The position numbers and the translations under genes are program-made. Source: a virus. From it: DNA of 64,000 bases. Positions 10,855 through 49,505 of this stretch are shown one piece after another. How positions within the stretch are numbered: position 1 is the first letter of the stretch; each line of letters begins with the position of its first letter. The DNA lies in the IMG/VR virus record IMGVR_UViG_3300027963_000048, positions 51,615 to 115,614 of that record; one strand, written 5' to 3'. The notes beneath the pieces were generated by a model. That model saw only the letters and a list, made by a program, of their open reading frames with translations, was not told where the DNA came from and did no database searches.

Positions 10855-11204
10855 TGCGACACCTTTAGTATTCTCTGTACTATATAATTACCCAAAATTA
10901 AAGGATGGGAAATAGATTTAGCTCTCCTGACATTCCTTCAGTAGAATGCAACTATATTGAATCGATCTTAGTAAAGTTGGTACATTACATAAATAAAGCC
11001 CTTAAGGTATCGTATAGGCCATGCGACTTTTGGGGCTTTGCATGGACTTGCTACCACAAGTGCAAAGTATACGAGACTCATTGGCGCTATTATTTTTTTA
11101 TCAGCTTATATCGTATAATCTATCAATTTATTCTTAAGGAAAATCAGAACGTAGCCCTGAGACTTAGGGGCAAGGATCTAGTTGATAAACTGGAGGCTAC
11201 ACAA

Positions 11205-11474
11205 ATGAACACTTTAAACACCGCATGGCACAACTTCCTTAAAACAAACGGTGGAATAGAGCACGTTGTAGAAGTCTTGCTGTTTGACCAGCCAAAAGCC
11301 CAACGTCAAATGATAATAGATCACTACGTGAATGGAATGACGACTGAAGAAATCGGTAAGGCGTATGGGATTACCAAAAACAGAGTTAGACAGTTAATGA
11401 AAGCGAATTTAGCACTGCTTAAGGAATTCTTATATTATGTTAAGGATCTAGGTGAATTTTTATCTGAATTATAG
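11205..11474 (+). CDS. Sigma-70 region-4-like HTH protein (may be the C-terminal part of ORF 10905..11474)
   Basis: QRQMIIDHYVNGMTTEEIGKAYGITKNRVRQ. GGAGG RBS precedes ATG 11205. Confidence 0.65.
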   Translation: MNTLNTAWHNFLKTNGGIEHVVEVLLFDQPKAQRQMIIDHYVNGMTTEEIGKAYGITKNRVRQLMKANLALLKEFLYYVKDLGEFLSEL

Positions 11475-29829: not shown

Positions 29830-29981
29830 TGTGATGCTCCGTTTGTGATGTTGTGACTGGCTAATTGTAGCAGGTTTGATATTGTTTAATAATTATGTGT
29901 GTTGTATTGGAGGGTTATTTTTCCTATGTTCGTGGTCTGTCACATCATGCCGGGAAATTCACCAGTACTTGGAGTGATGAA

Positions 29982-31207: not shown

Positions 31208-32338
31208 ATGATGATGATGACGACTTTTAATTACGTGACCACCAATGTTAAGTCTTTGCGAGCTCACGTTGATGAGCAGCGGACGAAAACCGGTCGGTTG
31301 TTACGCAAGACTTGCGACAAGATTGAGATTGATGGTCAGGCTGCCCATCCGACCTCTAGGTTTTGGAATAGCTTGTATAGCATGTACGGGTTCAATGGTG
31401 CGTTTTTCAAGTACTTCAGCCATGATGAAGTGTTCACGCGTCTCCAGGAGCGTGATGATGATAGGGAGATTCGGGTGTGTGTGGAGAGCGATAATGGGGT
31501 TGATAAGTTGCTTGCTTGTACAAATCCCAATTCTGGTCTGATCACTTATGATGAGTTGATGGATTTGACTAGCACCTTGGGTGGTGACAAGGTTCGTTAT
31601 GCCAATGGTGTGGTTGAGTCGTGTCACAAACCTGCGGTTGGTGCTGGTGATGTGTCGATTGGTGGTGATCAGTTTACACCACATGTTACGCTTTCAGCAC
31701 CTATCGATGGTTATGGGTTGCCTAGTTTGTATTTGAGCTTGCTGCGTCAGGTGTGTTCGAATGGGTTGGTTGCTATGGATAAGGCTTTCCAGAGTCGGAT
31801 TTCGGTTGGTAAGAAGGATGGCAATGTTTCTTATAGCATTGCTCGCCATTTGCAAGGTTATGGTAATGATGAGGGTTATTCTGCGATCAGGCAGCGGATT
31901 TCGTCGTCGCAGACTTCTAGAGCGTCGTTGTTTGAGGTGACTGATCTTTATAACGCTATCAGCCGTGTTAAGGAGAATATTTCTAGTGTTGCACCAGAGG
32001 ATACCGCTGGTTCGATGGTGCAGCAGGAATACGGGATGAGCAATCGGTTTAGCGTGTCGAGATCTTTGGTTAATCTGGCTGGTGATGTGTCGAGCTTGTA
32101 TGGTTTAGCGTCCACTAGCATGGTTAATACTAAGAAATTGAAGACGTTGCCAGCTAAGTGTAGTGTGTATGACTTGATCAATTTTGCTACTGAGGTAGCT
32201 ACTCACCATTCTGATACTACTGCTGCTCGGCGTTTGCATGGGTGGGTTGGTAGTTTGATTAGTAACGAGTATGATCTTGAGGGTGCTAAGATGACTTTGG
32301 ATAGCAATGGCTTCAAGGAATTACACCTTAGTGCATAA
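31208..32338 (+). CDS. DUF932-like protein
   Basis: DG....LRQVCSNGLV and C-terminal YDLINFATE..TH motifs. Confidence 0.65.
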   Translation: MMMMTTFNYVTTNVKSLRAHVDEQRTKTGRLLRKTCDKIEIDGQAAHPTSRFWNSLYSMYGFNGAFFKYFSHDEVFTRLQERDDDREIRVCVESDNGVDKLLACTNPNSGLITYDELMDLTSTLGGDKVRYANGVVESCHKPAVGAGDVSIGGDQFTPHVTLSAPIDGYGLPSLYLSLLRQVCSNGLVAMDKAFQSRISVGKKDGNVSYSIARHLQGYGNDEGYSAIRQRISSSQTSRASLFEVTDLYNAISRVKENISSVAPEDTAGSMVQQEYGMSNRFSVSRSLVNLAGDVSSLYGLASTSMVNTKKLKTLPAKCSVYDLINFATEVATHHSDTTAARRLHGWVGSLISNEYDLEGAKMTLDSNGFKELHLSA

Positions 32339-32428
32339 TATTTATTGGTTTAGGTGCGAGGGGGATTGCCCTCTCGCACTTTCTTTGTCACATGTGGTCG
32401 GTGGTTCACGTGTTAGGAGGGGTGTGTT

Positions 32429-33171
32429 ATGGCGTTTACTAAGATTTGGGAAGATTTTAAAGCGTGCAAGGAGCCGTATTTTCGACTCGAATTGCCTAAG
32501 CCGTCGATGGAGTTAACTGCTGCTGCGCCTCCTCGTATTAGGAAGATACATGAGGAAGCACCTAATTTGACGATTGTGGAAATTAAGACTGATTTGCTGG
32601 ATGATGGGCGGTTTGCATGTCTGAAGGCAATGCGCGATTTGGATGATCAGAGTGCTTTTGGATTGCTGTTGACGTGGTGGAGTATGTTCGCTTTGGGCAT
32701 TGGGATGAAGCAGGTTATCCCTATTGATAGGCTCTCTGGAAAGGGGTTGGCAGAGGATTTACATCAATGTGGTTTTGCTAATGTGGTTAAAAGAAAGAAA
32801 TCGGGTGCTGGATTGTACACTTATCATAGTGTACTGTCCAAGGTGGGGAAGCATACTAAAATTATTGGTGTGGATATTGAAGCTGCCGATTGCCCTTGTA
32901 AATTTTCAAGGAGTGCGTAATGCCTAGTTTTAAGTTGACTATTGGTGTTGAGGTGGATGTTGATAATGTGATGGATCCTACTACTAGTTTGAATGTTATT
33001 AACAATAGGATCTATGATAAATGTATTGCTCGGGATGATGTAGAGTTCGATGGTATGGGTTTTACAAATGGGCAGTGCGAATTCGGGTTCACAGTTGAAG
33101 CGGTTGAATTGGCTGATGCTTTGAGTGTGGTTGTTGAATGTATTAGGAATTCTAACATTGGAGGTGTATGA
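32429..33171 (+). CDS. Two hypothetical proteins (32429..32920, 32920..33171)
   Basis: AGGAGG RBS after element 32362, TAATG coupling. Confidence 0.7.
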
Positions 33172-33383
33172 TGGGTAGAGCTAAGGTTGGTGGCGTAGGT
33201 GCACGTGATAATCGTGAATCTATTTTACTGCGGGTTGAGCCGTCTGTGGCTGCTTTGATTCGTGAGGCTGCTAGGCGTGAGGAGCGTACTCTTACTGCTG
33301 TAATGACGCGTGCTTTGCGATCTTATTTGAAGACCGAGCATGGTCCTGCTGCTGTCGATGAATATTGTAATTCTGCAGGGTGA
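33168..33383 (+). CDS. Ribbon-helix-helix DNA-binding protein
   Basis: ILLRV.P.....IREAARREERTLTAVMTRALRSYL pattern. Confidence 0.7.
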   Translation: MMGRAKVGGVGARDNRESILLRVEPSVAALIREAARREERTLTAVMTRALRSYLKTEHGPAAVDEYCNSAG

Positions 33384-33474
33384 TAGGGGATTTCTTGCTC
33401 ATCTGATTTCTGTCACAATTGGTTGGTGAGGGAGAACGGTTTTTCCTCACCAAATGCGAAAGCGGGAGGTTGCG

Positions 33475-34116
33475 ATGAGTTTCTTGAATAATCTAAAGTC
33501 CAAGTCGGTTAACAAGGCTACTAAGACTGGTGCAAAGAAGGGCACCAGTTGGATGCTAACTGAGGCAGCTCATATTGACGCGGTCAACGAGATCGTGAAG
33601 CTCGACCGTGAGGTTGATGCTATCAATGCCAAGATTAATGTTCGGAAGAACATTCTTAAGGGTGTTGCTCAGGAAAAATGGCTTTCTGATTATGTCCGTG
33701 AATCTGGATCTCCAGAATCTCCGATGAAGCTGTTGACTCCTGAGGGAGAGAGCTTGACCTATGTGGTGCAGGATCGCAGCGGCCAGGTGAAGGTCTCTGA
33801 TGATCTTCGTGAGCAGCTCGTAGTTGAGATTGGGTCGGATGCGGTTGATCGTCTCTTGTACGAGGAGACCACGTTCAGCTTCAATCGTGTGGCGTTGATG
33901 AACCCACAGATTGAGAAGGCTGTTAGCAAGGCCCTTGAGGCCTTGGTTGAGCAGGTGGCCTCTATCGATCCTGAGATTTCGTTGTTGGATGTCGAGCAGA
34001 AGGTGGCTTATAAGAAGCTTGATAATTTGACTGAGATTTGTGGTCATGATAGGGGTGCTATCTCCCGATTCGTTGAATTAATCGGCAGTGCTTTGGTCCG
34101 ATATTTGAAGGTTTAA
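33475..34116 (+). CDS. Hypothetical protein
   Basis: GGAGG RBS after element 33387. Confidence 0.75.
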   Translation: MSFLNNLKSKSVNKATKTGAKKGTSWMLTEAAHIDAVNEIVKLDREVDAINAKINVRKNILKGVAQEKWLSDYVRESGSPESPMKLLTPEGESLTYVVQDRSGQVKVSDDLREQLVVEIGSDAVDRLLYEETTFSFNRVALMNPQIEKAVSKALEALVEQVASIDPEISLLDVEQKVAYKKLDNLTEICGHDRGAISRFVELIGSALVRYLKV

Positions 34117-34207
34117 GGTCGTCCCTTGATGGGGTGGGGGGATTTCTCTCCCACCCCTTTATTGTCACATCGAATTGTCAGTTTGATAATAATAAGGAGG
34201 CGCAACG

Positions 34208-36124
34208 ATGGAAGCTGCTGTTTGGGCTAATCAGTTGGATTGTAACAGCATTATCAAGCACCTTGATGTTGGTGCGTTGTTTAAATTTCCAAATGATGAT
34301 ATGGTGATGTTATATCACGGGCGCGGGTGGTATTCAAATCCGACCCATCCCAGGAATCCTTTGATTCGGTTTAAGACTGGGATGAATACTGGAGTTATTA
34401 GAATTAATTAATTGGAGGGTGTGCGATGGCTGTTAATGCGGTGAAGGTTACTGATCGTGTTTCTGGAATTGCTGGCATGAATGCCAAGTTGAAAGAGGCG
34501 TTGGCTTCCGTGTGGGTTTTGGAAGGGCACGATGGCTTTTGGTCTTATCAAGTTGGCGCCAAGCCTGATACTACTCCACCAAGTGGTGCTGTGTTGGGGA
34601 ATGTGGGTGGTGGTATGGTTGCCTTATTTGTTGAGAATCAGGTATTTAATCATTTGGTTGAGATTGGTAGTGGTGCGTAGTAGGGATTTCTCTCCTCTCT
34701 CAACCCTGTCACAATTTTGTGTGGTGGTAATAACAAGGAGTGAGAAATGACAACTTACATGATAGTTCGAAGATATCAGAATGCCTGTAGGGGGGGGGTG
34801 GTAGAGCGTGGTTTGAGCCTTGAGGAGGCTCAGGCTCACTGCCGTAACCCAGAAACGTCCTCTAAAACTGCCACATCCTCATGGGCTGTGACATTAACTG
34901 AGAAACGTGGCCCGCGGTTCGACGGGTACGAGGACGAGGGTTCGTTTCTATAAGGAGTATGGTGATGTGGCAAGATTGGTCAGCGATCCTCAATAGTGGG
35001 GATCGCACTGCGATTATCAGTTGGCTTGCCTGGAATGATCCAAGTGGGGTTTATCTGGATAGTGATTGCGAGCTTGAAGGCTTGCCTTGTCTAGATATTG
35101 ATGCTGCTAGGGATTATATGCGTCGGGCATTGGAGAATGGATAGTGGGGGGGGGATTTTCATCCTCTTCTGGTTGTGCCACAATATCGTGTCCTTTTTTG
35201 GAGGTGAGCGATGATAAAGAAGCAATCGTTGTCGGTGTGGCGTAAGCAGTTTGCTGCTGAATACTTGCGTCGCGTCGGTATTACCATTGAGGATGGTGGT
35301 GCTGATGGGGTTGTTGAAAATTATTTTTCTGATAGCTTCACGCCAGCGGAGGCGGTGGAGCGTGAGATAGAGAAGTATGATTTGGCTGATATGTCTAACA
35401 TGTTTGGGTGGATGTAAACACTTAGAAAGGGGTTAATATGTCATCTGATACTGCTGGTAAGTGTGTTGAAACAATGTCGAATGTTTCGCAAGATGATTTT
35501 GAGGGTTTGTTTGAATGTGAGGATGTGTTTCGTAGTGATATAGATAAAGCGATACAGTGTGTTTATTATTTTGATGGAGTTGGTGGTGAGGTGGCTCATT
35601 ATTTTCCGTCGTTGAAGAGTGGCACGATTTTTAAAGTGCCACGGATTTGGCATGAGTCTTTTAAACCCAATCTTACTTTCGTTAGGAAATGGTTTGAAGG
35701 CGAGGAGATATAAATATATTCTCCCATGTCGTTTGGGCTGTCACAATTTGATGTAACCAAAGGAGATTTTGCGATGAAAGTGATGAATCACGCTGAATAC
35801 CAAAAGAACCTCCAGAAGAAAAGCTGGAGTGCGTTGTGGTACACTGCAAAGGACGCAATGGAGGCTGCGCAGGCCTACCCTGAGGGAGAGAACGCGTCGT
35901 ATTACCTCGATGAGGTCAATTATTGCCTGGATGAGATTGCCAGGCGTAACAGGCTTGAATTGAAGGTGAAGGTGAAAGATCAAGACACCATTCACACGAT
36001 CTACTCCGACTTGTCGAAGGTGGGTTTTGTGATGAGGGAGATTTACCCTACTGGTCACTTGGTCAGTTGCAGAGCTTTCGATAAGGCTGCTGCTACTGAG
36101 TTGTTGTGTGGTGGGCTCAAATAG
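34208..36124 (+). CDS. Small early-type proteins: 34208..34411, 34426..34680, 34747..34953, 34959..35144, 35211..35417, 35438..35713, 35774..36124
   Basis: Each has an RBS, and most directly follow a GGGATTT-N17-TGYCACA element. Confidence 0.7.
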
Positions 36125-36540
36125 TGGGGAATCTCTCGCACCCCTTTCTTTAGTGCTTTGTGTGCAAATGGTACGATTACTGCGGATTTGTAGATTAGGG
36201 TAAAGCGTCGCTTTGATTTGTTGCGACAGTTGCGTGAGCTTGATGCGTAACGGCACCCAGTTGCCGAGCCACCTTGTACTTGTGGGGTGGAGCTGGAGGT
36301 ATAGCCCCTGAGCCTTACGTTGTTCGGTGCAATCACCTGTGCCTTATATCGGGGGATGGTGTTGGCGCGAACAGACTCTCCGTCTGTTACAAGCCCTAGG
36401 TTAGGTGCGTACTGCGTTGGTATTAAACACTAAACCTAGATTCAAGTAATTGAGAGATTCTTGGAGCTTTGATGGGGTGCCACAATTGAGAGGTCAGCAA
36501 TTGGAGCTGTGTGGCACCCCATCATTTTTGGAGATGAACA

Positions 36541-36825
36541 ATGGATACTGATGAATCTTACTCGAAGTTGAAAACTCGTGCAGAGCGATTGTTGGTATTA
36601 GTGCGTCAAAACGCGCCCTTTGAAATTATTTTCAATGAGATTATGCTGTTGCATAATATGATGCCTGAGTTTGAGGAAGCTTACATTAAATGGGTTGTAA
36701 GCCAGGCGAAACGTACAATTGAGAAGAATAGGAATACACGCGGGTTATGTTCAGAATGCCCGGCACAGTTGGGGGATGGTGAGGAGATCTGGTGTGAAGC
36801 GTGTGGCAAGCAATATGATGTGTAA
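36541..36825 (+). CDS. Hypothetical protein with C-terminal CxxC...CxxC zinc ribbon
   Basis: GGAG RBS, CSEC...CEAC. Confidence 0.65.
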   Translation: MDTDESYSKLKTRAERLLVLVRQNAPFEIIFNEIMLLHNMMPEFEEAYIKWVVSQAKRTIEKNRNTRGLCSECPAQLGDGEEIWCEACGKQYDV

Positions 36826-36831
36826 TTGATG

Positions 36832-36862
36832 GGGAGGCAGCCGAGAGGCTGCCTCCCTTTTT
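36832..36862 (+). terminator. Intrinsic terminator
   Basis: GGGAGGCAGCC-GAGA-GGCTGCCTCCC followed by a T-run. Confidence 0.85.
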
Positions 36863-36936
36863 ATTCATATATATAAGGATGCTGGGCGAGGATTTCTCCC
36901 CGCCCAGCGTGTTTCCTCTCTGGAACATGTAGTATG

Positions 36937-37817
36937 CTACTGGATGAGGGAATTAAATATATGCATTCCATGGCCGCGGACAATAAAACTAGCGTAATCG
37001 GTTGCAATGTCGAAGTTTTCGAAAATATGTTTGGTCAATTCGCCCTTCATAATTAATGGGATGTGTTTTTCTCTTTTTAAAAGAGCAATTTGGTCTGGTC
37101 CTGTTCTTGCTTCGTTTCGCCTATCGAAAATGCCGACGAGGCCATCGCATAGGGTGACAAAATCTGGTTCATCCATCACAACCGTAGTGATATGTCGGCC
37201 ATTTACATTGAATTCTTTTTTGAATGGTGCGCTCATATTGCTCCTGTGGTTAAGTCGTGTCCGTTTCATTTTGGCATCAGCCGGGTGGTAGAGTAATTAC
37301 TCCACCACCGTTTTTGTTAAGCGAAGAGTGGAAAGCCTGGGACTTTTCCAGAGCTGTTGGTTACGAGGCGGCCCAGAGCTGTTGGTTGGCGCTGTGAGAT
37401 ATGCGGTCGGTTACATTCTCCGCCACTACGATCTCTAGGATCTTATTAGCGACGCGTGTTAGGGTGTCTCGGTCTGTGTGCCAACTGTAGCTAGTGCACG
37501 CTGATCCGTCTTGAATTGGCTCGTCTTTGTAGTAGATGGTATAGCGGACGAGTGGTTGGTCATTGTCTGCTTCGCCATAGTCTCCATTTAATCCTTCTCC
37601 GTCATATGAGAGGATAACTTGATGGTCGCCGGTGCTACTTACTATGTCATCGAAATGCATGTTAGCTCCTTTGGGGTAGGTTGTTGTGGGCGTCTTGTGG
37701 CACCTTAGGTGCTACTGCGAATTTCTCTGGCCACTTGGGTGCCTCCGGGCAATCTTTGGCGTGAAATTGAACGTCAAAGAAGAAACTATACTCGTATTTG
37801 CAATGCGGGCAGCTCAT
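36937..37817 (-). CDS. Three small proteins (36937..37236, 37361..37660, 37662..37817)
   Basis: GGAG RBSs, co-oriented. Confidence 0.6.
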
Positions 37818-37948
37818 TTGATCTCCTTGTGTTGGATCACCTCGATTGTTTGTGACAGCGCAGTTGATGTGGGATAATGGGTTTTCCCCTGTCGTTATGT
37901 CTGTCACAATTTGATGCAGTTTGATTCCCAGTAACCGCGGAGGCTAAG

Positions 37949-40514
37949 ATGAGATATCGTGAGTTCATCAAACCTTGGATCGTGGGCCCGATGGCAGAGT
38001 GGGAAATCATGGAGATCGGTCGGGCATGCCGCACGCCAAATGGTAAGGGCATCAACCTTACGTGTCTCACCGACGGAGGTGAGAGGGTGTTGAGTGTGCG
38101 AAAAACCGGCGGCGAAAAATACAACAACGTTGCCATCACAGAATGGTGGGACAAATACCTTGGCCTGATGCCATCGCGTCTGGACTGCCCTAAGACCCCA
38201 AAGGGAAGCGTGGTAGTGAAGGTGGTCCCGATAGAATAGTGGACAGGCATGTTGGTGGGGGGATTTCTCTCCCCGCCTTTGACTGTCACAGGAGGGAGTG
38301 ACGGGACGAATGACACACGGAGAAACGGAATGCTAGACCAAATTGCGGAAATTGCGAATATGGTACAAGCTCAACCAATCATCAAGTTTGTCGAGACAAT
38401 CGACGACGAGTGGCACCGGTGGGTTTTGTCTGGCGCCAGAGTTGGGTCCGCTGCCCCTTGGGCTCTCACGTTCGATACTGAAATAGATGGTCGAGATCTT
38501 GTTGTGGAGAGTGCTGTTGGGCTTTCTGAACCAGAGAGTCAAGAATTGTTGCTCCAGATCCATCAGCTTGTCGAATTCCCAGAAGTGCCAGAGTAGGGGG
38601 ATTTTTCTCCCCTCGCCTTTGGCTGCCACAGAATTATGTAACCGACCTCAAACCAAGGAGACGACGATGGAATTCAAAAAAGGCATCCTTTGGGGCGGGA
38701 AATTTGGACGCCCACCCACGGTCGAGCTCCCCACGCCGGGAGCCAATCAGGGGAAGATCATTGATTACATTCAAGAGGAACACAGGATTTTTTTCGAGGT
38801 CGGCTATTTTGCCGACGGGCTCTGGTGTTCCTTCGAAAGGGCTTTCGACCATGAGGAAGCATTAGAGAAACAAGCTAGGCTGGCATATAGTCACCAGCGT
38901 GACTGGGCAATCGTACAGGTTGACATCAAGATCACACGAAAGTTTGTGTAGGGGGGGATTTCTCCCTATTTGGCAGACTGTCACAATTTACTGGTGGTGA
39001 AATTGGTGTCAGGGAGTGCGACAATGACTTACAGTATTACGCGTTTTTTTGAAAACGGCAGCCGGGAATCGATCGCTACGGGTTTGAGCCTAGAGGAGGC
39101 GCAGACTCACTGCAAGGATCCGCAGACAAGTTCCAGGACTGCGTCGGAGTCCTGGGCTGTGGCTCTGACTGCTGAGCGCGGAAGGTGGTTTGATGGGTAC
39201 GAGTCAGAGGATAATTTTATCTAGGGGTGATTATCCTATTCATGGGACCCTGCCACAATTTGTTGTGGTGGGGCTTGTGGGTCATAGAAAGGGATATTAG
39301 CTATGGCTGTGTGGCGTTATCGTGACTGTGTCAGTACGTTTAACGTTGGCGGTCAAGACCGCCAAGTTCGTATCCACTGGATCGAACATCGTCGTAATGT
39401 CGATAATGTCGAGCTCGACTATTATGAGTTCGTGGACGGGTTAGACCCAGTAGAACTGGATCTAGACTTGGTGGAGTTCGAAGCGGTTCAAAATTCGACC
39501 CATTATTTGAGGTGGAATCATGATTGCGATTTGGAAGAATTGCCTAGGTTAAATTTAGAAGAAGGAGATGGTAATGTACGGTGAACCCTCATCTTATTAT
39601 GATTTCTTCACACCTACGTTTAGCGAGCTAATTCATGATTACGCTCGTGGCGTAGGTGACCAACATCCTGATCGCTGTTGGCTCACCACCCCTTATGACA
39701 CCTTTGTACGTAACCCATTTTATGCCGGACCGGAACAGCCTTGCCCTGAACTTTAATCGAACGCAAACGGGTGGGGGGGATTTCTTCCCCCACCTTCTAC
39801 TGCCACAAAATAATGTAACCGACCAATAACCAAGGAGGCCAAAATGATCGAGCTAGAATTTGACATGTCTGTGCAGTTAACTGACACCGAGAAGCTGTCG
39901 GCCATGCTCAGGTCGATTGCTGACCAAATCGACAGCGGCGCGTGTGGCAGCAAGATCATTAAGGATGGCTTGGCCGGCCAGTGGAGACTCTACGACCCAT
40001 ACGAGCAATAGTGGAGGGGGGATTTCTTCATCTGGCTTCTATTGTCATAATTTGGTGTAACCAAGGTAGTCGGGCTGTCACAGCTCGATGGGGACGGAAA
40101 GCTAACGTTAGGAGGTCTGGGATGTCTTACTTGGAAGCTGCGTTTGATGCGGTGATCAAGGACAGCAAGCCGTCGGAGAAGTGGTATGTGGTCCTCATGG
40201 AGGATAGCTCCTATTATGGAGGCCCGGAAGAAGGGGGCTGGTGGGGACATGATACTGACGTGCTGAAGTACGCGGTATTTAATAACGAGGAAGCGGCTTT
40301 GCAAGCCAAGGAGCGCGTGAAGGAGTTGGCTGCTGAGTTGGAGGCCCAAGCTCGCACTGAGTATGGTGAGGGGTGTTTACGGCAGTTGGAGTGGTTGGAT
40401 GCTCGCGGCTTGGATGCGGATTTCTTTCCTGAGGATGATGGTCCGAGTAGGTATTGGGTTTATTGTGGCCAGGAGATTCCTCAGCCCTCGGTTGGTCCGA
40501 GGCATTATGAGTAA
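37949..40514 (+). CDS. Small early-type proteins: 37949..38239, 38330..38596, 38667..38951, 39024..39224, 39303..39584, 39568..39756, 39844..40011, 40122..40514
   Basis: One gene per element, starts set from RBS. 39844..40011 (55 aa) is absent from the ORF track but is paralogous to 47598..47816. Confidence 0.72.
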
Positions 40515-40525
40515 ATAGGTTATTG

Positions 40526-40608
40526 CTCACCGTGGTGTAATGGCAGCCACAACGGACTTAAAATCCGTTGCTCGAAAGGGCGTATGGGTTCGAGTCCCAT
40601 CGGTGAGA
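40526..40608 (+). tRNA. tRNA-Leu(TAA)
   Basis: Acceptor CTCACCG/CGGTGAG, anticodon arm ACGGA-CTTAAAA-TCCGT, long variable arm, ATGGG-TTCGAGT-CCCAT, discriminator A. No encoded CCA. Confidence 0.92.
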
Positions 40609-40617
40609 TTTGAAAGG

Positions 40618-41001
40618 ATGTCAAGGATGGTTAAGGTTCGGTTTCATTTGGCGCGTGGTGCCAATTTTAAGACGTGGCAGGTTATTGATAATGGTGTGGT
40701 TCGGTATTACGATCCAGATGCGGTGTGTTTAAGGATGTTCGGTTGTCGTTTGAAGAATCGTCGTCGAGTGGCAGATAAGATTTTTGCTGGCGAGGATAAG
40801 ACGGTGTGTGCTTGGATTGATTGTGAGCGGGTTGAGGTGGGCGATAGTTCCTCCTTGGAAACACGAGATAATCAGAATATATTGTCTTTTAATCCGAAGG
40901 TTGTACCTTATTGGGTTCGCGATGGTGAGTGTGCTGAGAATCTCGATGGGATGGTATTTTCTGAAATAATTAGTAGGGGTCGTCGTCTTATTGTAATCTA
41001 A
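40618..41001 (+). CDS. Hypothetical phage protein
   Basis: KVRFHLARG.NF..WQ motif. Start moved downstream of the tRNA. Confidence 0.7.
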   Translation: MSRMVKVRFHLARGANFKTWQVIDNGVVRYYDPDAVCLRMFGCRLKNRRRVADKIFAGEDKTVCAWIDCERVEVGDSSSLETRDNQNILSFNPKVVPYWVRDGECAENLDGMVFSEIISRGRRLIVI

Positions 41002-41061
41002 TGGGAATGGGTGGAGTTCACCCATTCCACATTGTTCGTTTAGTCCAGGGTCTTGTGGTGG

Positions 41062-41640
41062 TTAGTTGGTGCCCCATGGGTTGGAAGGCAACAAGTGCCT
41101 ATACGCTTTGCACAAGTATTCTTCAAGGTCTTCATCCTCCTGGAGGGCTTTCATGGCGTCAGAAGTGTTGCCATGCACGCGTTCACTTATTACACCATTC
41201 GGGTAAGATACTTGCACGATGCGGAAACTGAGACCTTCCCATTCCACTGGCTTTCTGAAGATTCTGACTTTATCACTGGCGTAATCGAACATCAGTCTTC
41301 TCCTTGTGGCTGGGGGCGGCTTGCCGGTCGTCAGCTCGCTCCCCCCGGCCCCGCTTTATTATGACAGCCCCCGGCGCCGGGGGAAATCCCCCCCCGCAGC
41401 GCGGCGGAGGGGCATCACCTGTTATTGCTCGGCATTGGCACAGAATTGTGACAACTTCCAGGACGCTTCACTGCCGAGGACGTCGGCTAGTGCTCTGTGA
41501 ATTTCCGTCGTGGGTCCTCCGGCGGAGACCCACGAGTGGTATTCGTTGAGGTGTTTCAATGTTTGGCCATATTCGCTGATTGCGTACGCTTCGTACGCTT
41601 CTAGCAGGCAAGCTTCAGGGTCCAACTCTTCAGGGTCCAT
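41062..41640 (-). CDS. Two small proteins (41062..41292, 41422..41640)
   Basis: Each is downstream of a minus-strand element (41360, 41677) and has an AGGAG RBS. Confidence 0.7.
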
Positions 41641-41784
41641 CTTAAACCTCCTTATTCTAGTGCCGTCACATCATTCTGTGGCAGTGCGTGCGAGATAGGA
41701 GAATCCCTATATGGGGGGGATTTCCTCCTGGCGTGACGGGTGTCACAGATGGGTGTGACCGAAGTAACCCTAGGAGACCCAACG

Positions 41785-42777
41785 ATGGAATTCTTGAAAT
41801 CAGTCGAATTCGAGTTTGAAGGCAGCCTCTTCATTGCCACTCTGACTGACTCGGACGCGATGTCGGTGGCGGAGATCGATGTGTTTGGGCGAGACGATGA
41901 CGCAAGAAATCGTCTCGAAGATGACGATTTCTATGACAGGATCTATCAGCATGTGAACAATCGTTTCGTTTAATGTTGCGTGTGGTGGAGGGGGGGATTT
42001 TTCCCCTCCACCATTGCTGTCACAGTAAATCGTTAATGCAAAGGGGACTGCGATGGAAAGAAAAAGTGGCGTACCGGTGTTGCACTTCTGCGATGAGGAC
42101 CTGACACTCATCGGAATCGATCCAGAGCGCGTTGATGACGAAGCGTTCGAGCGCATCCTAGACGGGTTACGCGAATATTACAACACATCCTTCACGGATG
42201 TGTTGCAGGACATTGTGGCAGGTGTGTTGGACGGAGATTAGCCAACTGGCGGCAGTGGGGATTCCTCCCTCACCTGCCGACTGCCATAAGTTGGTATAAG
42301 GAGATGATGATGAAAAACGTCAGCGCACCGAAGCGTGTAGAACGCAAAATCACGATTGTTATCGACCAGACTCGCGTGAGCCGTGGCCACTTGGCAACGA
42401 GTGGGGCTGGGACTCACCAAGATCGTCGCCAAAGGCGGCGAAAGACTCGGTCGGCGGCACTTATGGCTTGCATGGAATAGGGGGATTTCTCACCTGCCTT
42501 TTGTCTGTCACAATTGGTTATGAGAAGCCAAGCCGAGTGACGCTTGGCTAGTGGGTTACTTGTCAGACCAATCATTCACATGGAGCCGAACATGACCAAG
42601 CACCAGACAGCGCTATACGAAGCAACTACCACACTGATGGCTAAGCTCTCCATAATCTCAAACTATTTGGGTGTCGCCCTTATGTATAACGACGACGGTA
42701 AACTCAAAAAGGCGATCGAACAACTCGATGAGGCCCAGAATCTCGCCATCACCATCCACAACAGTACCTCCCGATAA
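41785..42777 (+). CDS. Small proteins: 41785..41973, 42053..42241, 42304..42480, 42592..42777
   Basis: One per element. 42304..42480 (58 aa, basic, GAGTHQDRRQRRRK) was read by hand. Confidence 0.68.
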
Positions 42778-42955
42778 AGGCATAATCTCCCCCACGGCAT
42801 CTAAAGCTTGCGTAAATGCTTCCGCAAAAACGTCGACACAAATGTAGTTGCGCACTAACCTTGGAAACGGTGCGCGAGTTCAGGTGGGGGGATTTCTCCC
42901 CCACCATTTGGCTGCCACAGTTTAACGTAACCGACCCAAAACCAAGGAGACGAAA

Positions 42956-43357
42956 ATGAGCATCAGCGATTACAACATGATGACAGTCGGCAAAGCTAAT
43001 TTCACACTTGCTAATGACAAACACCGATGGACATATCAGATCAACCAAAGCAAAGACGGAAGATGCTACTTCGTCAGTGTCCTGTCCGGCGCGGACAATA
43101 ACGCTGACTATGCGTACCTTGGCATCTTCAAGCCTGAGAACGGGTCAGTCAGTCTCACAAAGGCATCGCGGTTCACGCCAGAATCAATGCCCTTCAGGGC
43201 TGTAGCCTGGCTAGTGCAAACACTCAAAAAAGGCGAGCCGCTAACTCATAACTTCGAGCTAAAATGGGCCGACCAATGCCAACGATGTGGCAGGACACTT
43301 ACTGTCCCATCATCGATAGATAGTAGAATTGGGCCAGAATGCGCTAAGAAGGTGTAA
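42956..43357 (+). CDS. DUF6011-like zinc-ribbon protein
   Basis: CQRCGRTLTVPSSI..RIGPEC C-terminus, VL.G.DN..DY.YLG. Confidence 0.75.
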   Translation: MSISDYNMMTVGKANFTLANDKHRWTYQINQSKDGRCYFVSVLSGADNNADYAYLGIFKPENGSVSLTKASRFTPESMPFRAVAWLVQTLKKGEPLTHNFELKWADQCQRCGRTLTVPSSIDSRIGPECAKKV

Positions 43358-43359
43358 CC

Positions 43360-44004
43360 GTGAGGCTACCCGATGATGTTAAAGATGTGCATCTCCTTGG
43401 AGACATCCATGGAGATTATGGTAGGCATGATCGCGTTGCTAAAAAGCACCATTATACCATTCAATTGGGTGACTTTGGTTTCAAGTATGATTCCTTAAGA
43501 AAACACGACCCGAGTTATCACAAAGTGCTTGGTGGTAATCATGATAATTATGATCTGATTGGTAATATGCCTCACTACTTGGGTGACTTTGGTACTTTTG
43601 AATTAAGCTCACCGGAGTTCACTTATAGTGTTATTAAAGTGTTTTATATTAGGGGTGCAGATAGCATTGATAAACAGTTGCGTACGATTGGTGTAGATTG
43701 GTGGCAAGATGAGCAATTGACTATGGCGAGGATGAATGAGGCTTTGGATTTGTATGGTAGCTACAGGCCGGATGTTTTGTTAAGTCATTCTCCGCCGTCG
43801 TTTGCGATTGAGTGGTTTTGTGTTCCCAGGTTACCTTTTGCGTTGACTGAGTATTGCTTGGATGTTATGCATGAGGTTTATGCTCCGAAGTTGCATATTT
43901 TTGGGCATATGCATAAGACGAAGGTTAAGAAGTTTGGATCTACTAAGTTTGTTTGTGTTGATATTAATCAGACTATCAGTTTGGTAAAGTCTTTTCGTGG
44001 GTAG
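43360..44004 (+). CDS. Calcineurin-like metallophosphoesterase
   Basis: GDIHG, QLGDFG, GNHD, LSH.PP, FGHMH. Confidence 0.9.
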   Translation: MRLPDDVKDVHLLGDIHGDYGRHDRVAKKHHYTIQLGDFGFKYDSLRKHDPSYHKVLGGNHDNYDLIGNMPHYLGDFGTFELSSPEFTYSVIKVFYIRGADSIDKQLRTIGVDWWQDEQLTMARMNEALDLYGSYRPDVLLSHSPPSFAIEWFCVPRLPFALTEYCLDVMHEVYAPKLHIFGHMHKTKVKKFGSTKFVCVDINQTISLVKSFRG

Positions 44005-44049
44005 GGTTGGGTGTCACAGTTGTTTGTGGTCAAAGTGTGGAGGTGTTGA

Positions 44050-44226
44050 ATGGAGTGTTTGGGGTGCGGTAAGACGATTCCGGCTGGTCGGTTGGAGATT
44101 TTCCCTCACACGCGGTTTTGTGTGGGGTGTGTTGATAAGCACCCGCAGGGGGTTAGTTATGATTATTCGCATGTGGTGGCGCAGTCGTCGTCATCTGGGC
44201 GTAATGGGTTTGCTAAGTCGGATTAG
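44050..44226 (+). CDS. TraR/DksA C4-type zinc-finger protein
   Basis: Hand translation: MECLGCGKTIPAGRLEIFPHTRFCVGCVDKH..., matching C..CG..IP..RL...P....C..C. GGAGG RBS. Confidence 0.8.
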   Translation: MECLGCGKTIPAGRLEIFPHTRFCVGCVDKHPQGVSYDYSHVVAQSSSSGRNGFAKSD

Positions 44227-44247
44227 ATAAGAGTTGCTGTGTTGTGG

Positions 44248-44589
44248 TTAGCAGTCCCATTTTCTGAGGGCTTTGCAGATGTCTTTGTCTGGGTTGGCTC
44301 GACAGTCGATGTTGTGCATTTTCTTTTGGCCTTCCATTCTTGCGCAGAATGATTTTCGGCGTTTTGCTTTGGCTGGTGATTTTTTGGCTGCTTTGGCACT
44401 TACGGGTGGTTTGAGGTTTGCACCTTCGGTGCGTTTGAAGTGGGCGCGGCCTTTGGCGTTTAGGCCTCCATCTTTGGCCTGGTATTTTTTGGCTACTCCT
44501 TCAGCTACCGGTTTGATGCTAGTTTGTTCTGCACCCGGGTGTAAACTATTTAAAAGTTCTGCGTATGCGGCTGTGTAAGCGTGTTTCAT
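44248..44589 (-). CDS. Basic conserved phage protein (possibly DUF6321-like)
   Basis: GGLNAKGRA...NLKPPV...RRKSFCARM...LRKWDC. Confidence 0.65.
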   Translation of the reverse strand: MKHAYTAAYAELLNSLHPGAEQTSIKPVAEGVAKKYQAKDGGLNAKGRAHFKRTEGANLKPPVSAKAAKKSPAKAKRRKSFCARMEGQKKMHNIDCRANPDKDICKALRKWDC

Positions 44590-44693
44590 GTTGTCCTCCG
44601 GTATGGTATATTTGTTTCCTCCCTGGAACATGGGGGGTCCCTTATCGCCCGATATCAGGCGATAACCTTACCAGCCGTTCACAACACAAACCC

Positions 44694-47600
44694 CTACCGC
44701 AAAACCAACACCCTCACTCGCTCCTCGTCCTCTTCTCGGTCGTCGTCGTCCTCATCGTTCTCAATCAAAGCAATACCGCTTTTGCTGTAGCCGCTCGTCT
44801 TAATGTTCGACGTTTGGATACCCAAAGCGTCCCTGATCGGCAAAAGCTGCTGCGTGTGGCTGATATCGCCGTAATCACAGCACAAAAGGACAGGCTGATC
44901 ATCGTCAACGTCCTCAATCAGCCGTTTCAGTTCACCAGCAGTCATCGTGGCGTGCAAAACTTGCTTGATCTCGTAGTTATTAGAAGCTTTCATCGCTATC
45001 TCCTCTTCTTTCGCCAGGTGGGGTGTCCGCCCCTCCCTCCCCTCTGTGGCAGGGGGAGGGGCTCCCGTTAATTGTTAGCGCCTGATATCAAGTGCTCCGC
45101 CGTTTGATGCTGTCTCTCATAGCGACGCAATCCTCGATGCAAAAGCCGGTGCCAAGGATATCACCGCTATCCGCCAGAAGCCAGCGATCCGGGTGTCTTT
45201 CGCTGCTTTCATGCGTCCCTGGTGCAAAAGCAACCATCCGGTTCGGGTTGGTGGTCCATGCTTTTCTCGCTTGTTCCATGCTCATCGGTTTCATGTCTTC
45301 TCTCCTTTTCGTCACCAGGAGAGGTGTCCGCCCCTCCCTCCCCTCTGTGGCAGCCCGCCGGGGCGCGGAAAATCCCCACCGCCGCAGCAGCTCGCAGCGC
45401 CGGGAGAAAAGCCCCCGCTGGGTGGGGTTTCTCCGGCCCTTACCGACTGATATCAAGGACAGGGGAGAAAACCCCCCACCAGAACCGACTTGTTACTCGT
45501 CTGCACTTCCAGACCTGGACAGGTTCGGATTTTACCACCGGGTTTAGATTGCATCGTTATCCGTGTATTTAAAAGTTTTCATAGTTACCTCTTCCACTCC
45601 CTACTTACAGTTACCTTAGCAATACCATATTGAGCTTCGCTCATTTTCTTTAAGGCATCATGTACAAATTGAGTTCGTTTACTAGGGCAAATGGCAAACT
45701 CCAAACGAATACGGTCGTCATCCCTTTCATCAAACTCAAAGATTAAACAATCCTTTAGATCTAGCACTAGATGCTGCTCCATCGTGACCTCCTAATCTTT
45801 ATTCCCGACCACTCCCTCCTGTGGCACCAAAGAGGCAGGGGAGAAACCCCCCTGCCTCCAGCCAACCCGTTACTCTTCGTCGTCTTCGTCCTCGTACGCG
45901 TGGTGAGGGTCGTCTTCCTCACTTCCGTCGTCCCCTTCCCACAAGACAGTGTAGCCGACGCTCTCGTCAGCGGCTGCGGCTACCAAAAGCTTAAGCTGTG
46001 CTACTGCGTCTTCAGCCTCTTTGAGCTCAAGACGCAACCGCCCAAGAGCGTCGCTCTTGGTTGGGCAGTGAACAAAGGCGTCCTTGTCCTCGCCTTCACC
46101 GTAGTTCTCAAAGTCGTTACAAACGCTTCGAGGGTAACCGGTACCGTAAAAAAGCGTCCCCTTGTGAAGAGAAAAGACCTCCTCCTGCGGGAACTCACCA
46201 CCGTCGTGGCCCCCTGGGTGTTCAACCAGGTCACAGAAAACCACTTCACCGACTTTACTTCCCTTTAACACTTAGGTCTCCTTTGTTAGTGCCACTCGTC
46301 CCCGTCACTCCCTCCTGTGACAGCACACAAGAGGGAGAAAAACCCCTACTCCGTAACTTCTGGAAACTCCACCAGCGTGTGGATCTCCAGCAGGAGCTCT
46401 TGGCTCTCGTCCTCGGAGAGCCCCACAGCACTCTCCACTGCTAGATCTCGTCCCTCGATCTCAGTGTCGAACGTGAGCGTCCAAAACGCGTTGGAGCCGA
46501 CCCGAAAGCCAGACAGCTCCCACCGATACCACTCGTCGTCGATCGTCTCGACGAACTTGATAGTCGGCTTAGTCTGTGCTAAGGGCCTGATATCTGCGAA
46601 AAATGCCGCCATTTCATTCTCTTGTGTGTCGTTCGCGTCCCCATCTCACTGTGACAGCCACGGGAGCCGGGAGAAATCCCCCCCAGCCCCAGAATCAAAC
46701 CGCTATTCCTCAATCCTCAGCTCGCACACCGGCTAATCTTCTGGTATGTGAATCTGCAATCTTGCCTTAGCAGCCAACGCTTTCAATAACGCGTCTTTGC
46801 GTTTCTGCCAACAATCCTTGTGATCAGCTAAGCAGACCATACGGTCCGCTATCGGCGTGTCTCTCAGACAAGGCGGTAAATTTTCCACAAGACCTCCCGT
46901 AATGAATGCCTTTCGATCCCGTTTTCTGTAACAGTTTACTTGATGGTAAGATACCCCTATACCCCCTGTTTCCTCGCTGGAACATGGGGGGTATATATAG
47001 AGGCCTGAAAGCGCCGTGGAGCCACGCCTCCTACTCTTCGAGATAATCGTTCTCAAACAAGTAATCAAGAGCCCACATGATCTGCTTAGCCGTGTAGCCA
47101 AGAGAACCTAGCTTCTCTCCCATCTCGAAATAGAACCAACCGTCACCACCTCTTCGATGAAGGATGGGCCTGGCAGTTCTCAGCGCTATTGTCAGCAATA
47201 CCCGTTTTTCCGCAGTGCACATTACCATCGCTGTCTCCTGTGTTGGGTGTCATTCCGTCTCAGTTAGTCTGTGACAGCCAGAAAGGGTGGGGGGGAATCC
47301 CCCCACCATGGCCGCCATGTACTACCCGACTAGCACTTTCGTCGTGCCATTACCGATGATAGGCTATTCGCAAGGCCCACTAGAATTAGTGTTTTTAATG
47401 GTTCAATCCAAGGAGTGTTTGATATGAAAATTTCTTGCAACGTTAACGCCTTGCAGAGATCGATCATCTGTTGCCAGTCTTGTAGGTCGGCCATTCGTCG
47501 TCTCCTTGTGGGCCCCGGGCTCCGCCCTGCTGTGGCAGCCCGCCGGGCGGGAGAAAAGCCCCCCCGCCGCAACAGCCCCCGGCGCCGAGAGAAATCCCTA

Positions 47601-49505
47601 TTCGGCAGGTGCTGTGATGCCAATTGCTGCCAACTCCTCCTCGTAGGGGTCGTAACAGCACCAGTGGCCTGATAGGCCATCCCGCGAGACCTGCTTACCA
47701 CAGTTCCCGTTCTCGATTTCATCTGCGATTTTCCGCAGTGCCGCCACCAAGACGGTCGAGTCGGTGTACTGCAAAGACACTTCGAGTTTCAATTCTTCGA
47801 GCTTGTGCCATCCCATGGTCGACTCCTTTTGTTGCTGGTCTCTCGTTCCCAATCTATTGTGGCAGCCAAAAAGCAGGGAAGAAATCCCCCCCGGAGGCTG
47901 GAGCTACGAAAATTATCATACATGCAACAACTGCGGTTCCTCAAAATCCCACTGCCAACCACTCCCAACCCACCGACACCAACAGCCCTGCGGAATACCC
48001 CAAAACTGAAACGGATCCTTGTCATACCCACGACCCGCGGCCTTCGCACGACATTCACTCAAAGAATCACCCGTAAACGCCATATCATCCACAGTCATCA
48101 CGTAGTACTTGAACATCACACCCTCCATCGTTGATGCCACCACACAAAACTGTGACAGTAAAAACAAGGAGGAAAAATCCCCCACAAAATCACGCAATAC
48201 CACCATTATCAGCAATAATACGCTCCACCAAATCAACAGGAACCCAACCGTAAACCGTACGAGTCGGCTCCTCCGCATCCTCCGCAAAAGGCATCAGCTC
48301 ATCAACTACAAGATTAGGAAAACCAACCTCCACTTCACTAAAAGGACCAACATTATCCCGCGGAGCACAATAATGCGCATGGCTAGCCTGCACAGAAAAA
48401 CGCAACCCACTCTTGCAAACAACCTCACGCGCCAAAACCCCAGCACGATTACTACAAAGATAATCATTCAACATAGCACAATCCTCCTCGTATAGTGTTG
48501 TTTCCTAGTTGGAACACAGGGGGGGTGTCGGCAGGGCGGGGAGACGATCCGCCCCACCGACACAAGGGATCATATCCCAAACTCAGCACACACCTCATCC
48601 ACCACACCATTCGTGGCAGCCAAAACTTCCTCCAAATTCACCGTATAATCCGAAATCACATCCCAGCCATCATTCCCATACACAAGATTCACATAACCAA
48701 CACGAACACCGTCCTTATAGAAAAAGATCGACTCCTCATCCACCGTCCTACAAGCCTCCCAAAGCTCAGTCGCATCGGTGGACTTGTGAACGGTGACTTC
48801 CTCACCATTGAAAACCGACAGCGCAAACCCCTGCTTGATCGCATCCTCCATCATGAAGGTTACTATCCGACGCTCCATCTGCATGCGATTCTGAAGCTGC
48901 TTGCAAGTGATTTCCTCGTACGCCATGTCAAGCCTCCGGAAAAGGTGTCCTTCATTCCCAACTCACTGTGACAGTCAAAAGGCGGGAGGAGAAACCCCCC
49001 GCTCGGTGCCACCTTACTTGGTGGGCTTACCATTACGTCTGGCAATCTCGTCCAGACAATAATTAACCTCGTCGAGGTAATAGGACGCGTTCTCTCCCTC
49101 AGGGTAGGCCTGCGCAGCCTCCATCGCGTCCTTTGCGTTGAACCACAACGCACTGTTACTTTTCTTCTGGAGGTTCTTTTGGTATTCAGCGTGATTCATC
49201 GCTTTCATCGCTTTCATCGCAAAATCTCCTGAAAAGGTGTCCTTCATTCCCAACTCACTGTGACAGTCAAAAGGCGGGAGGAGAAACCCCCCGCGCCGAT
49301 GAGCCGGTTGTTACTTGGTAGTGGGGGCGCCGTAGAACCGGGTCATTCCACCACGGGCCTTGGCGCCCTGCGAGCCACGCAACACGCCGCGTTTTGCCTG
49401 CGACTTGGTGCACGCACGATCCATTGCGAAGATCTTCCCGAAAGTGCGGATCGCACTGCCTTCACGCATGGCTTCAAGATCGATTGCGTCTAGGTGACGT
49501 TCCAT
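44694..49505 (-). CDS. Small early-type proteins: 44694..44993, 45088..45294, 45585..45782, 45870..46271, 46346..46612, 47031..47228, 47330..47494, 47598..47816, 47916..48116, 48190..48474, 48570..48926, 49014..49217, 49311..49505
   Basis: Each has a GGAG-type RBS. All but 48190..48474 directly follow a minus-strand element. Confidence 0.7.
48939..49294. repeat. 64-bp exact direct repeat of element plus leader (48939..49002 = 49231..49294)
   Basis: GAAAAGGTGTCCTTCATTCCCAACTCACTGTGACAGTCAAAAGGCGGGAGGAGAAACCCCCCGC occurs twice. Confidence 0.92.

Follow-up and report, generated by a model that had tools for sequence, protein, structure and literature searches.

The repeated intergenic element described here, found in the genome of an uncultured huge phage, is with moderate confidence best explained as a PeSL-like composite cassette, which combines a terminator with a promoter that is not of the σ70 type and is probably read by a phage factor. 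The first-pass annotation had suggested that the same ~40 bp end one gene and start the next, and this is the reading best supported by the sequence, given the hairpin adjoining the stop codon, the rigid 17-nt spacing and the association of TTT tails with copy-specific stems. Such a design has been published for promoter-early/promoter-middle stem-loops (PeSL/PmSL) of the T4-type phages RB49, phi1, PST, nt-1 and KVP40, where it was demonstrated experimentally (PMC2839356, PMC4122927); the promoter sequence in the present case is not a standard bacterial one.

The analyzed window is a stretch of 64,000 nucleotides from a contig of 115.6 kb. Copies of the element were accepted at PWM scores above 20 bits, the top score in the shuffled-genome control being 8 bits. 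In total 30 copies (29 distinct) were identified, all at window positions 29,938–49,265 (Table 1), and none were found in the other 96 kb of the contig outside this 19.4-kb stretch. They occur on both strands, each directly 5' of a Shine–Dalgarno site and ATG, and all 30 are oriented toward the downstream small gene. The ORFs 3' of the elements encode 30–382 aa, mostly less than 135 aa. The many copies are concentrated among small genes, most of which belong to no known family, as is typical for PeSLs, dozens of which are clustered in regions of small orphan genes. The source phage has a DnaE-type polymerase and is not T4-like; the phage most closely related to it is uncultured and 484 kb in size.

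Table 1. Copies of the element, its variants and the gene of a candidate reader (window coordinates; values in brackets are hairpin energies)
Coordinates	Strand	Score, bits	z	Description
10905..11474	+			Gene of the 189-aa sigma-like protein, ECF size, candidate element reader; region 4 matches Pfam
29898..29954	+	26.1		Weak box A, weak hairpin (-3.9 kcal/mol), box B T at 29938; precedes helicase gene
32346..32402	+		-4.0	13-bp copy-specific stem (-23.2), TTT tail, then TTGTCACA
33371..33427	+			TAG stop adjoins G-run, short bulged stem
34123..34179	+		-2.4	11–14-bp stem (-22.5), TTTATTG tail; first example in the first-pass annotation
34667..34723	+			Stop adjoins G-run, weak stem
35136..35192	+			Long G-run, 3' arm partly missing
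35700..35760	+	15.8		Class II variant: ATTCTCCC in register, boxes B and C, no G-run or hairpin
36881..36908	+			Hairpin with box A loop (GGATTTCTCC), no box B
37862..37918	+	24.7		Degenerate box A
38244..38300	+	46.5	-2.2	Top-scoring copy, 10-bp stem, TTTGAC tail
38584..38640	+			TAG adjoins G-run; leader common to copies at 39801 and 42913
38939..38995	+		-1.7	Stem TAGGG...CCCTA takes in upstream stop codon
39211..39267	+	20.9		Lowest-scoring accepted copy
39761..39817	+			11-bp stem (-19.8)
40003..40059	+			C-run lost, no stable hairpin; second box B 32 nt downstream at 40075
41350..41406	-			GC-rich (-27.6), stem not better than composition-matched shuffles
41667..41723	-			Back to back with plus-strand copy at 41741
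41701..41757	+			Divergent partner of copy at 41683
41978..42034	+		-2.4	14–17-bp stem (-27.1)
42242..42298	+			Outer stem GGCAG...CTGCC, box B is TGCCATA
42466..42522	+			TAG adjoins G-run, weak stem
42873..42929	+			9-bp stem, ATTTGG tail
45336..45392	-			GC-rich; box B and leader repeated at 45052
45810..45866	-		-2.7	13-bp stem (-25.6), CTTTGG tail
46306..46362	-			TAG adjoins G-run
46640..46696	-			T.G pair, T-A in relative L072
47260..47316	-			9-bp stem (-23.7)
47521..47577	-			GC-rich; second box-A-like unit just upstream (47574)
47848..47904	-	45.8		TTTTTGG tail
48141..48197	-		-1.9	Short stem, TTGTTTTTAC tail
48957..49013	-			Duplicate of copy at 49265
49249..49305	-		-2.6	8–13-bp stem, CTTTTGAC tail

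The seven hairpins quoted in the first-pass annotation are all present where it had placed them, the one at 45832 belonging to a minus-strand copy. All but one are copies of the element, the exception being the hairpin at 36881, which has only box A and lacks TGYCACA. This hairpin is situated at a convergent gene junction beside an ordinary terminator (36831–36858). A second class II variant, similar to the tabulated one, was observed near 31164.

Within the element, the stop codon of the upstream gene is followed by a G-run, ATTT(C), a pyrimidine run, box B, T-G, a Shine–Dalgarno site and ATG. The consensus is GGATTT-N17-TGYCACA with the distance between boxes A and B fixed at 17 nt; the conserved T-G lies 7 nt past box B, and the Shine–Dalgarno site and ATG, 35–52 nt 3' of box B. 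The hairpin begins right at the upstream stop codon, located at −40 to −47 in copies with long stems and at −23 to −32 in copies with short stems, where TAG adjoins the G-run. The loop and its closing pairs are conserved in sequence. The GATTT near the loop, previously described as conserved, is complete in only 18 of the 30 copies, while the two T's of ATTT are invariant or almost so. Box B together with the downstream TGT(G/A)AC forms a partial inverted repeat. [quoted passage not shown] Both boxes are retained in about ten copies from which the 3' arm has disappeared, the A–B spacing stays rigid even in copies without the hairpin, and in class II copies ATT remains in register along with boxes B and C, though neither the G-run nor the hairpin is present. 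Hence, the hairpin can be separated from the promoter signal.

The stability of the hairpin comes mainly from the conserved G-run facing the conserved C/T-run, and therefore the earlier description of the stems as co-varying was overstated. In the register of the promoter, column-wise covariation is not significant: 67.0% of cells in the 12-bp stem are paired compared to 65.6% after shuffling, native pairing is reached in 124 of 500 shuffles, and RNAalifold retains only a 4-bp G:C/G.U core. What does hold is pairing assessed irrespective of the register. The native arms yield −16.3 kcal/mol versus −14.2 kcal/mol for swapped arms (0 of 10,000 permutations), the outer flanks alone, −7.6 versus −5.8 (1 of 10,000), and composition-preserving shuffles of the outer 3' arm in each copy, Stouffer Z of −3.8 with z < −1.64 in 8 of 29 copies; over these three controls Z is about −3.8 to −4.1. 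Outer stems are clearly copy-specific in 8 or 9 copies. All four Watson–Crick orientations are used at pair ranks 6–14; the stems contain up to 17 pairs (8 or more in 21 of 29 copies) and the loops, 3–6 nt.

Short T-runs had been noticed after several stems, and indeed 13 of the 29 hairpins are followed by TTT and 4 of the 29 by TTTT, the three GC-rich copies having no such tail. The TTT tail accompanies 8 of 9 copy-specific stems versus 5 of 20 others (Fisher p = 0.003). Eight hairpins, from seven copies, pass a simple terminator scan. The GC-rich stem right at the stop codon and the T-run after the best stems resemble intrinsic terminators, but the U-tract is mostly 3–5 nt long or absent, hence, judged by the E. 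coli rules, many of these hairpins would terminate transcription poorly. Moreover, the loop and the inner stem are conserved in sequence, unlike those of ordinary terminators.

The element might be solely a promoter or an activator-binding site, its near-palindromic box A (GGGGGA / TCCCCC) being bound by σ region 4 or a MotA-like activator, with the hairpin a by-product having no function in RNA. Some of the stem signal could arise from a palindrome in the DNA itself. This explanation agrees with the absence of significant fixed-register covariation, with the large contribution of the G-run/C-run core to the folding energy, considerable even for swapped arms, and, provided that the promoter reading is correct, with the ability of ten copies to function although they form no stable stem. 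We nevertheless consider it rather unlikely, since the outer stems remain copy-specific after the composition control and go together with TTT tails, the stems start right at stop codons and sometimes pair the stop codon itself, the ATTTC loop is asymmetric and orientation-specific, and class II copies have ATT in register without the G-run.

The sense RNA folds into a more stable structure than the antisense one in 24 of 29 copies: the 5' arm is constantly G, the 3' arm alternates between C and T, and 22% of pairs are G.U. Since the sense-strand RNA owes its more stable fold to the G.U pairs, an RNA terminator or attenuator is favored over an N4-like DNA hairpin. The same asymmetry and G.U pairs, the conserved loop with its closing pairs and the partial inverted repeat at box B would also suit a signal acting in long polycistronic transcripts, in which the hairpin together with TGYCACA would be a processing or binding site for a phage endoribonuclease or an RNA-binding regulator instead of a promoter. 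This seems improbable: the rigid A–B spacing persists where the hairpin is lost, copies on both strands directly precede translation starts, no match for the element was found in Rfam, and the divergent copies at 41683 (minus strand) and 41741 (plus strand), arranged back to back, suit promoters and not sites on one transcript.

The first-pass annotation had also considered an extruded DNA hairpin recognized like the virion RNA polymerase promoters of coliphage N4; such a hairpin would form in supercoiled DNA. Like the early promoters of N4, the element contains a small inverted repeat that forms a hairpin 5' of genes and has a loop of conserved sequence, the region of the copies may be an early one, and a polymerase gene could have been missed as only about a third of the genome is in hand. 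However, since the G.T pairs belong to the non-template strand, folding is less stable in the template strand, on which N4 hairpins form. About ten copies have no stable DNA hairpin, the energies for template-strand DNA being 0 to −3 kcal/mol. The geometry also differs, N4 hairpins having a 5–7-bp stem with a 3-nt loop, as does the number of sites, 30 instead of three. In the searched sequence, which covers about 45% of the estimated genome, there was no match to phage RNA polymerase subunits or to single-subunit RNA polymerase. This reading is very improbable.

Boxes A and B do not fit the σ70 consensus, and only the copy at 34163 also passes a σ70 scan. Hence the reader is probably the host core RNA polymerase with a phage-encoded or phage-modified specificity factor. 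Two sigma-like proteins, of 189 aa and 313 aa, are encoded in the contig. The 313-aa protein has a canonical region 4.2 helix (TRERVRQIE) and therefore should prefer a TTGACA-like −35 box to box A. In the 189-aa protein the recognition helix of region 4 is altered (TKNRVRQL); every one of its best fold matches is a sigma factor, in several cases of the ECF type, but with weak E-values (0.02 and above). Judging by these helices, we infer that the 189-aa protein is the better candidate of the two. The element may tentatively be regarded as the cognate promoter of this undescribed ECF-sized phage factor, with the −35 box located inside the terminator hairpin.

A bipartite signal in which one box is G-rich and −35-like and the other contains GTC, along with an ECF-sized sigma-like gene on the same contig, resembles ECF systems. 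TGTCACA is also the exact sequence of the −35 box in ECF41 promoters, whose signature is TGTCACA-N16-CGTC (PMC3426412, PMC3616915). In contrast, TGYCACA here is the promoter-proximal box, and the 189-aa protein lacks the C-terminal extension of ECF41. An ECF41 promoter, which would require CGTC or TGTT after a spacer of 16 ± 1 nt, was rejected, as no column 16–20 nt past box B is conserved (information of 0.0–0.3 bits) and the start in this layout would fall inside the Shine–Dalgarno site. A σ54 promoter, characterized by GG at −24 and GC at −12 (TGGCAC-N5-TTGC), was rejected as well: instead of GG, box B has GT or GC, the TG downstream is off register by one base, and no match to the σ54 protein family (PF04552) was found.

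The closest likeness in architecture is to PeSLs, whose stems are often polyG-loop-polyC with G-T pairs and may overlap the −35 box; the stem-loop studied here is likewise rich in polyG/polyC with G-T pairs and overlaps a promoter box. The boxes differ, being GGGATTT / TGYCACA here and TTGACA / TATAAT or the Mot box in PeSL/PmSL. PeSLs fall into five placement classes, whereas here the hairpin occupies a single fixed position with box A forming the 5' arm and loop. Further, the present cassette, a putative promoter and terminator, comes from a phage outside the T4 type.

In phages with PeSLs, gains, losses and replacements of genes between close relatives are tied to the repeats. Relatives L072 and L092, 94–99% identical to the studied phage (96–99% for one relative), differ from it by gains and losses of whole cassettes and by one reordering. 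Of the 15 strain breakpoints, five are no more than 40 nt away from a box B, the enrichment at elements being only moderate. One strain deletion extends exactly between two 30-nt direct repeats of box B and the leader (the 45336..45392 copy and 45052), as expected from homologous recombination. Given that ~60–100 nt are common to the cassettes, they may double as recombination sites at which genes are gained, lost and reordered. The array of small cassettes bounded by imperfect palindromes, with content varying between near-identical genomes, would also suit attC-like single-strand recombination sites of an integron-like array, which have R''/L''-L'/R' inverse cores with GTTRRRY and are used by an IntI integrase. 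This is scarcely credible given that there is no tyrosine recombinase (PF00589) in 163 kb of this phage, that R''/R' inverse cores are absent, as the first-pass annotation had correctly stated, along with any inverse box B copy 5' of the hairpins, that cassettes with promoter-like signals of their own lie on both strands, and that the strain deletion fits homologous recombination.

In the proposed terminator/promoter cassette, each copy would regulate transcription between two small phage genes by two overlapping modules. The first would be the bipartite promoter of the downstream gene, consisting of a −35-like box (G-run)ATTTCTC, a rigid 17-nt spacer and a −10-like box TG(T/C)CACA, with the T-G ~7 nt past the latter as the probable start site; a start at this position would produce a 20–38-nt leader with a strong Shine–Dalgarno site. 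The second would be an RNA hairpin in transcripts coming from the upstream gene, in which the G-run pairs with the C/T-run following ATTT, and which, where space remains past the stop codon, is extended by an outer stem specific to the copy and by a short U-run. It would terminate or attenuate read-through, or stabilize the 3' end, just 5' of the next −10 box, so that each small gene would be insulated as its own transcription unit. If, in addition, the element is the cognate promoter of the 189-aa factor, every orphan gene of this huge phage would be a self-contained unit that ends the previous transcript, starts its own and can be moved by recombination. The PeSL principle would then extend beyond T4-type phages and host σ70 promoters, and the element with this factor would represent a new orthogonal sigma/promoter pair.

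Copies of the element were searched for using the heptamer found 3' of the hairpins of the first-pass annotation, and then by a position weight matrix scan with the cut-off set to 20 bits. In total, 30 copies (29 distinct) scored above the cut-off, all of them at window positions 29,938–49,265. No copies were found in the remainder of the 115.6-kb contig, and the best matrix score in a shuffled-genome control was 8 bits. The copies align without gaps and yield the consensus gGGGGGGATTTctCcCcc..cc..ttg.C-TGtCACA, that is, GGATTT-N17-TGYCAC. Further, the G-run with the adjacent ATTT, located in the hairpin, is referred to as box A, and the TGYCACA heptamer as box B. A T-G dinucleotide is conserved 7 nt past the box B heptamer (1.4 bits for the G), and in most copies a Shine-Dalgarno site and a start codon follow 35–52 nt downstream of box B. 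Two upstream layouts were observed: the preceding ORF stops 40–47 nt before box B, which leaves space for a long stem, or its TAG stop immediately adjoins the G-run, 23–32 nt before box B. Positions of the copies and of other features are listed in the Table. In all copies, TGT(G/A)AC(C/G)G occurs 7–13 nt 3' of box B, and part of it repeats TGTCACA in inverted orientation (GTCAC-N8-GTGAC). Beyond mere start-site context, the two sequences might together form the operator of a dimeric regulator; whether box B position 3 is T or C shows no covariation with its partner in the repeat.

Table. Positions of the cassettes and of other features (window coordinates unless indicated otherwise).
Feature	Position	Strand	Remark
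Plus-strand copies	29.9–42.9 kb	+	
Minus-strand copies	49.3 down to 45.3 kb; two at 41.4 and 41.7 kb	−	
Divergent pair	41667–41757	+ and −	two copies back to back, 58 nt apart
Class II sites	near 31164 and 35738		
Terminator at the convergent junction	36831–36858		ordinary; 12-bp stem, TTTTTATT tail; 22 nt before the next hairpin
Hairpin at the convergent junction	36881–36908		box A loop present, box B absent
Near-identical leaders, group 1	48973, 49265	−	20–60 nt
Near-identical leaders, group 2	38624, 39801, 42913	+	20–60 nt
Near-identical leaders, group 3	38284; 46322 and 45826	+; −	20–60 nt, across opposed arms
Direct repeats bounding one deletion	45052 and 45352		box B + 30-nt leader
T.G to T-A change	46656		stem preserved
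Paired T-to-G / T-to-C change	42282		stem extended
Region with one-base G-run differences	39.4–50.6 kb		compared with L072, L092
tRNA-Leu(TAA)	40526–40608	+	within the cassette array
tRNA-Met(CAT)	55325–55397	−	adjoins the polymerase gene
RuBisCO-large-chain-like protein and the two ORFs after it	50610–53607		PF00016, 119 bits; then a methyltransferase, then an ORF without family match
189-aa sigma-like protein	10905–11474		
313-aa sigma-like protein	contig 304–1245		outside the window

All seven hairpins quoted in the first-pass annotation are present in the sequence. Most of the pairing is between the conserved G-run and a conserved pyrimidine run. The claim that the stems co-vary held only in part. 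In the fixed promoter register, RNAalifold retained four pairs and covariation was not significant: the 12-bp stem was 67.0% paired compared with 65.6% in column shuffles, and 124 of 500 shuffles were as high. The weakness of this signal is explained partly by the variable length of the G-run, which moves the fold axis by 1–2 nt between copies, and also by the lack of outer stems in a third of copies. In contrast, register-free controls detected copy-specific outer stems. Native arms folded at −16.3 kcal/mol versus −14.2 kcal/mol for swapped arms (permutation sd 0.50; 0 of 10,000), and the outer flanks taken separately at −7.6 versus −5.8 (1 of 10,000). When the effect of local GC content was removed by shuffling solely the outer 3' arm, copy by copy, the Stouffer Z was −3.8, with z below −1.64 individually in 8 of 29 copies. 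Pairs ranked 1–5 from the loop outward are G-C or G.U, and those ranked 6–14 include GC, CG, AT and TA. About one copy in three has a genuine complementary stem of its own; the others retain a conserved core stem of 4–6 bp, with about ten having no stable fold. No Rfam family matched the element, the sole match in the region being a tRNA.

For 24 of the 29 copies, RNA of the sense strand gives the more stable hairpin; relative to the antisense strand, the difference averages −4.2 kcal/mol (Wilcoxon p = 2e-5). G.U pairs constitute 22% of all pairs, and the 5' arm remains G while the 3' arm varies between C and T, the pattern expected of tolerated G.U pairs. The short T-runs noted earlier after several hairpins were confirmed for the copies with significant outer stems, where TTT directly follows the stem in eight of nine cases compared with 5 of 20 other copies (Fisher p = 0.003); still, the U-tracts are short, with TTTT in only 4 of 29 copies.

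Boxes A and B keep both sequence and spacing in the copies lacking the hairpin. Moreover, variant copies, further called class II, were found at two sites in the window and two in L072, a metagenome contig of a relative. They retain ATT in register as well as boxes B and C, ATAT replaces the G-run, and the hairpin is absent. Hence the promoter-like signal can occur apart from the hairpin, and it is apparently the G-run that was added for the sake of pairing. Boxes A and B do not resemble sigma-70 promoter boxes. TGTCACA is the −35 box of ECF41 sigma factors, TGTCACA-N16-CGTC (PMC3426412, PMC3616915); this reading of TGYCACA was rejected, as there is no conservation 16 nt downstream and the start would fall in the Shine-Dalgarno site. 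The reading as a sigma-54 −24 box failed on the GG dinucleotide and the register, and no sigma-54 gene was found. The host sigma-70 extended −10 reading was rejected as well, given that only about every second copy has T at −7.

A putative terminator-plus-promoter cassette, as proposed in the first-pass annotation, is the model best supported by the sequence, short of proof. The alternative of an extruded DNA hairpin read like the N4 virion-polymerase promoters does not agree with the template strand, which folds worse also with DNA parameters and in about ten copies has almost no hairpin, or with the lack of a single-subunit polymerase gene in the 163 kb available. An attC-like recombination site was dismissed, as no integrase was found in the same 163 kb and the defining attC features are missing from the element.

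No RNA polymerase subunit was found in the 163 kb. Two sigma-like proteins, candidate readers of the element, are encoded on the 115.6-kb contig. The 313-aa protein matches Sigma70_r4 (56.7 bits) and passes TIGR02937. The region 4.2 helix of sigma-70 is TRERIRQIE; in the 313-aa protein it is TRERVRQIE, and in the aligned solved RpoS chain, TRERVRQIQ. Given this canonical-type helix, the protein should prefer a TTGACA-like −35 box, as predicted from structural knowledge of sigma-70. Its region 2 has diverged, and alongside such a −35 box it should read an unusual −10 box. The 189-aa protein has a weaker Sigma70_r4 match (34.7 bits) with the helix altered to TKNRVRQL. The best fold matches of its predicted structure (pLDDT 72) are sigma factors, several of them ECF, with weak E-values of 0.02 or more; a 75%-identical homologue was found on an 83.8-kb contig. 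We infer that the element may be read by one of these two proteins.

The window covers bases 51,615–115,614 of the 115.6-kb IMG/VR virus contig. The completeness of the contig estimated by CheckV is 32%, corresponding to a phage of roughly 360 kb. Proteins encoded in the window include a DnaE-type polymerase, a helicase, a ligase-like protein, a Laminin_G structural protein, a RuBisCO-like protein and a metallophosphoesterase; there are also two tRNAs. By polymerase, the closest GenBank phage is LR756508, an uncultured 484-kb phage with 36% identity, which contains no copies of the element. Searching phage records with the region by megablast gave no match, and neither the 189-aa protein, an alignment of it, nor the helicase retrieved relatives from viral contigs. 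The search of viral contigs with the 313-aa sigma yielded one match, the 67.6-kb contig G001 from the same or a near-identical phage; it overlaps the left end of the 115.6-kb contig and has no motif copies. In the viral, metagenome and bacterial genome collections the exact pattern gave single chance matches only, besides metagenome contigs L072 (9,991 bp, 96–99% identical to the window) and L092 (1,041 bp, 94.5% identical).

Compared with the window, these two contigs lack whole cassettes (deletions of about 250, 380 and 1,020 bp), have two cassettes that the window does not contain, and show one change in cassette order. One deletion lies exactly between direct repeats. Among orthologous elements, changes that preserve the stem include T.G to T-A and a paired change by which the stem is extended. 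The G-run length differs by one base between orthologous elements, due to either homopolymer slippage or assembly error. Leaders are common to non-adjacent cassettes in both arms, and three groups share near-identical ones, which points to probable duplication or exchange of cassettes.

The element follows a design already published for T4-type phages. In their promoter-early stem-loop cassettes (PeSLs), a strong promoter and a stem-loop are combined in one intergenic unit; the stem-loop often has the form polyG-loop-polyC with G-T pairing, and it can extend over the −35 or the −10 box. In reporter constructs PeSLs showed both terminator and promoter activity. They are concentrated in hyperplastic regions of orphan genes and bring about the shuffling of modules (PMC2839356, PMC4122927). 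Unlike PeSL and PmSL, the element has a promoter sequence of neither sigma-70 nor Mot type; compared with PeSLs, its hairpin is always placed in the same way and the phage belongs to a different lineage. Terminator-in-promoter cassettes, here with their own promoter sequence, would thus also organise the accessory-gene region of an uncultured huge phage unrelated to the T4-type ones. The strain comparison provides a concrete case of gain, loss and reordering of small genes in huge phages. If one of the two phage sigma-like proteins does read the element, protein and element together would delimit a transcription class of about 30 genes of unknown function, and could be used as an orthogonal expression part.
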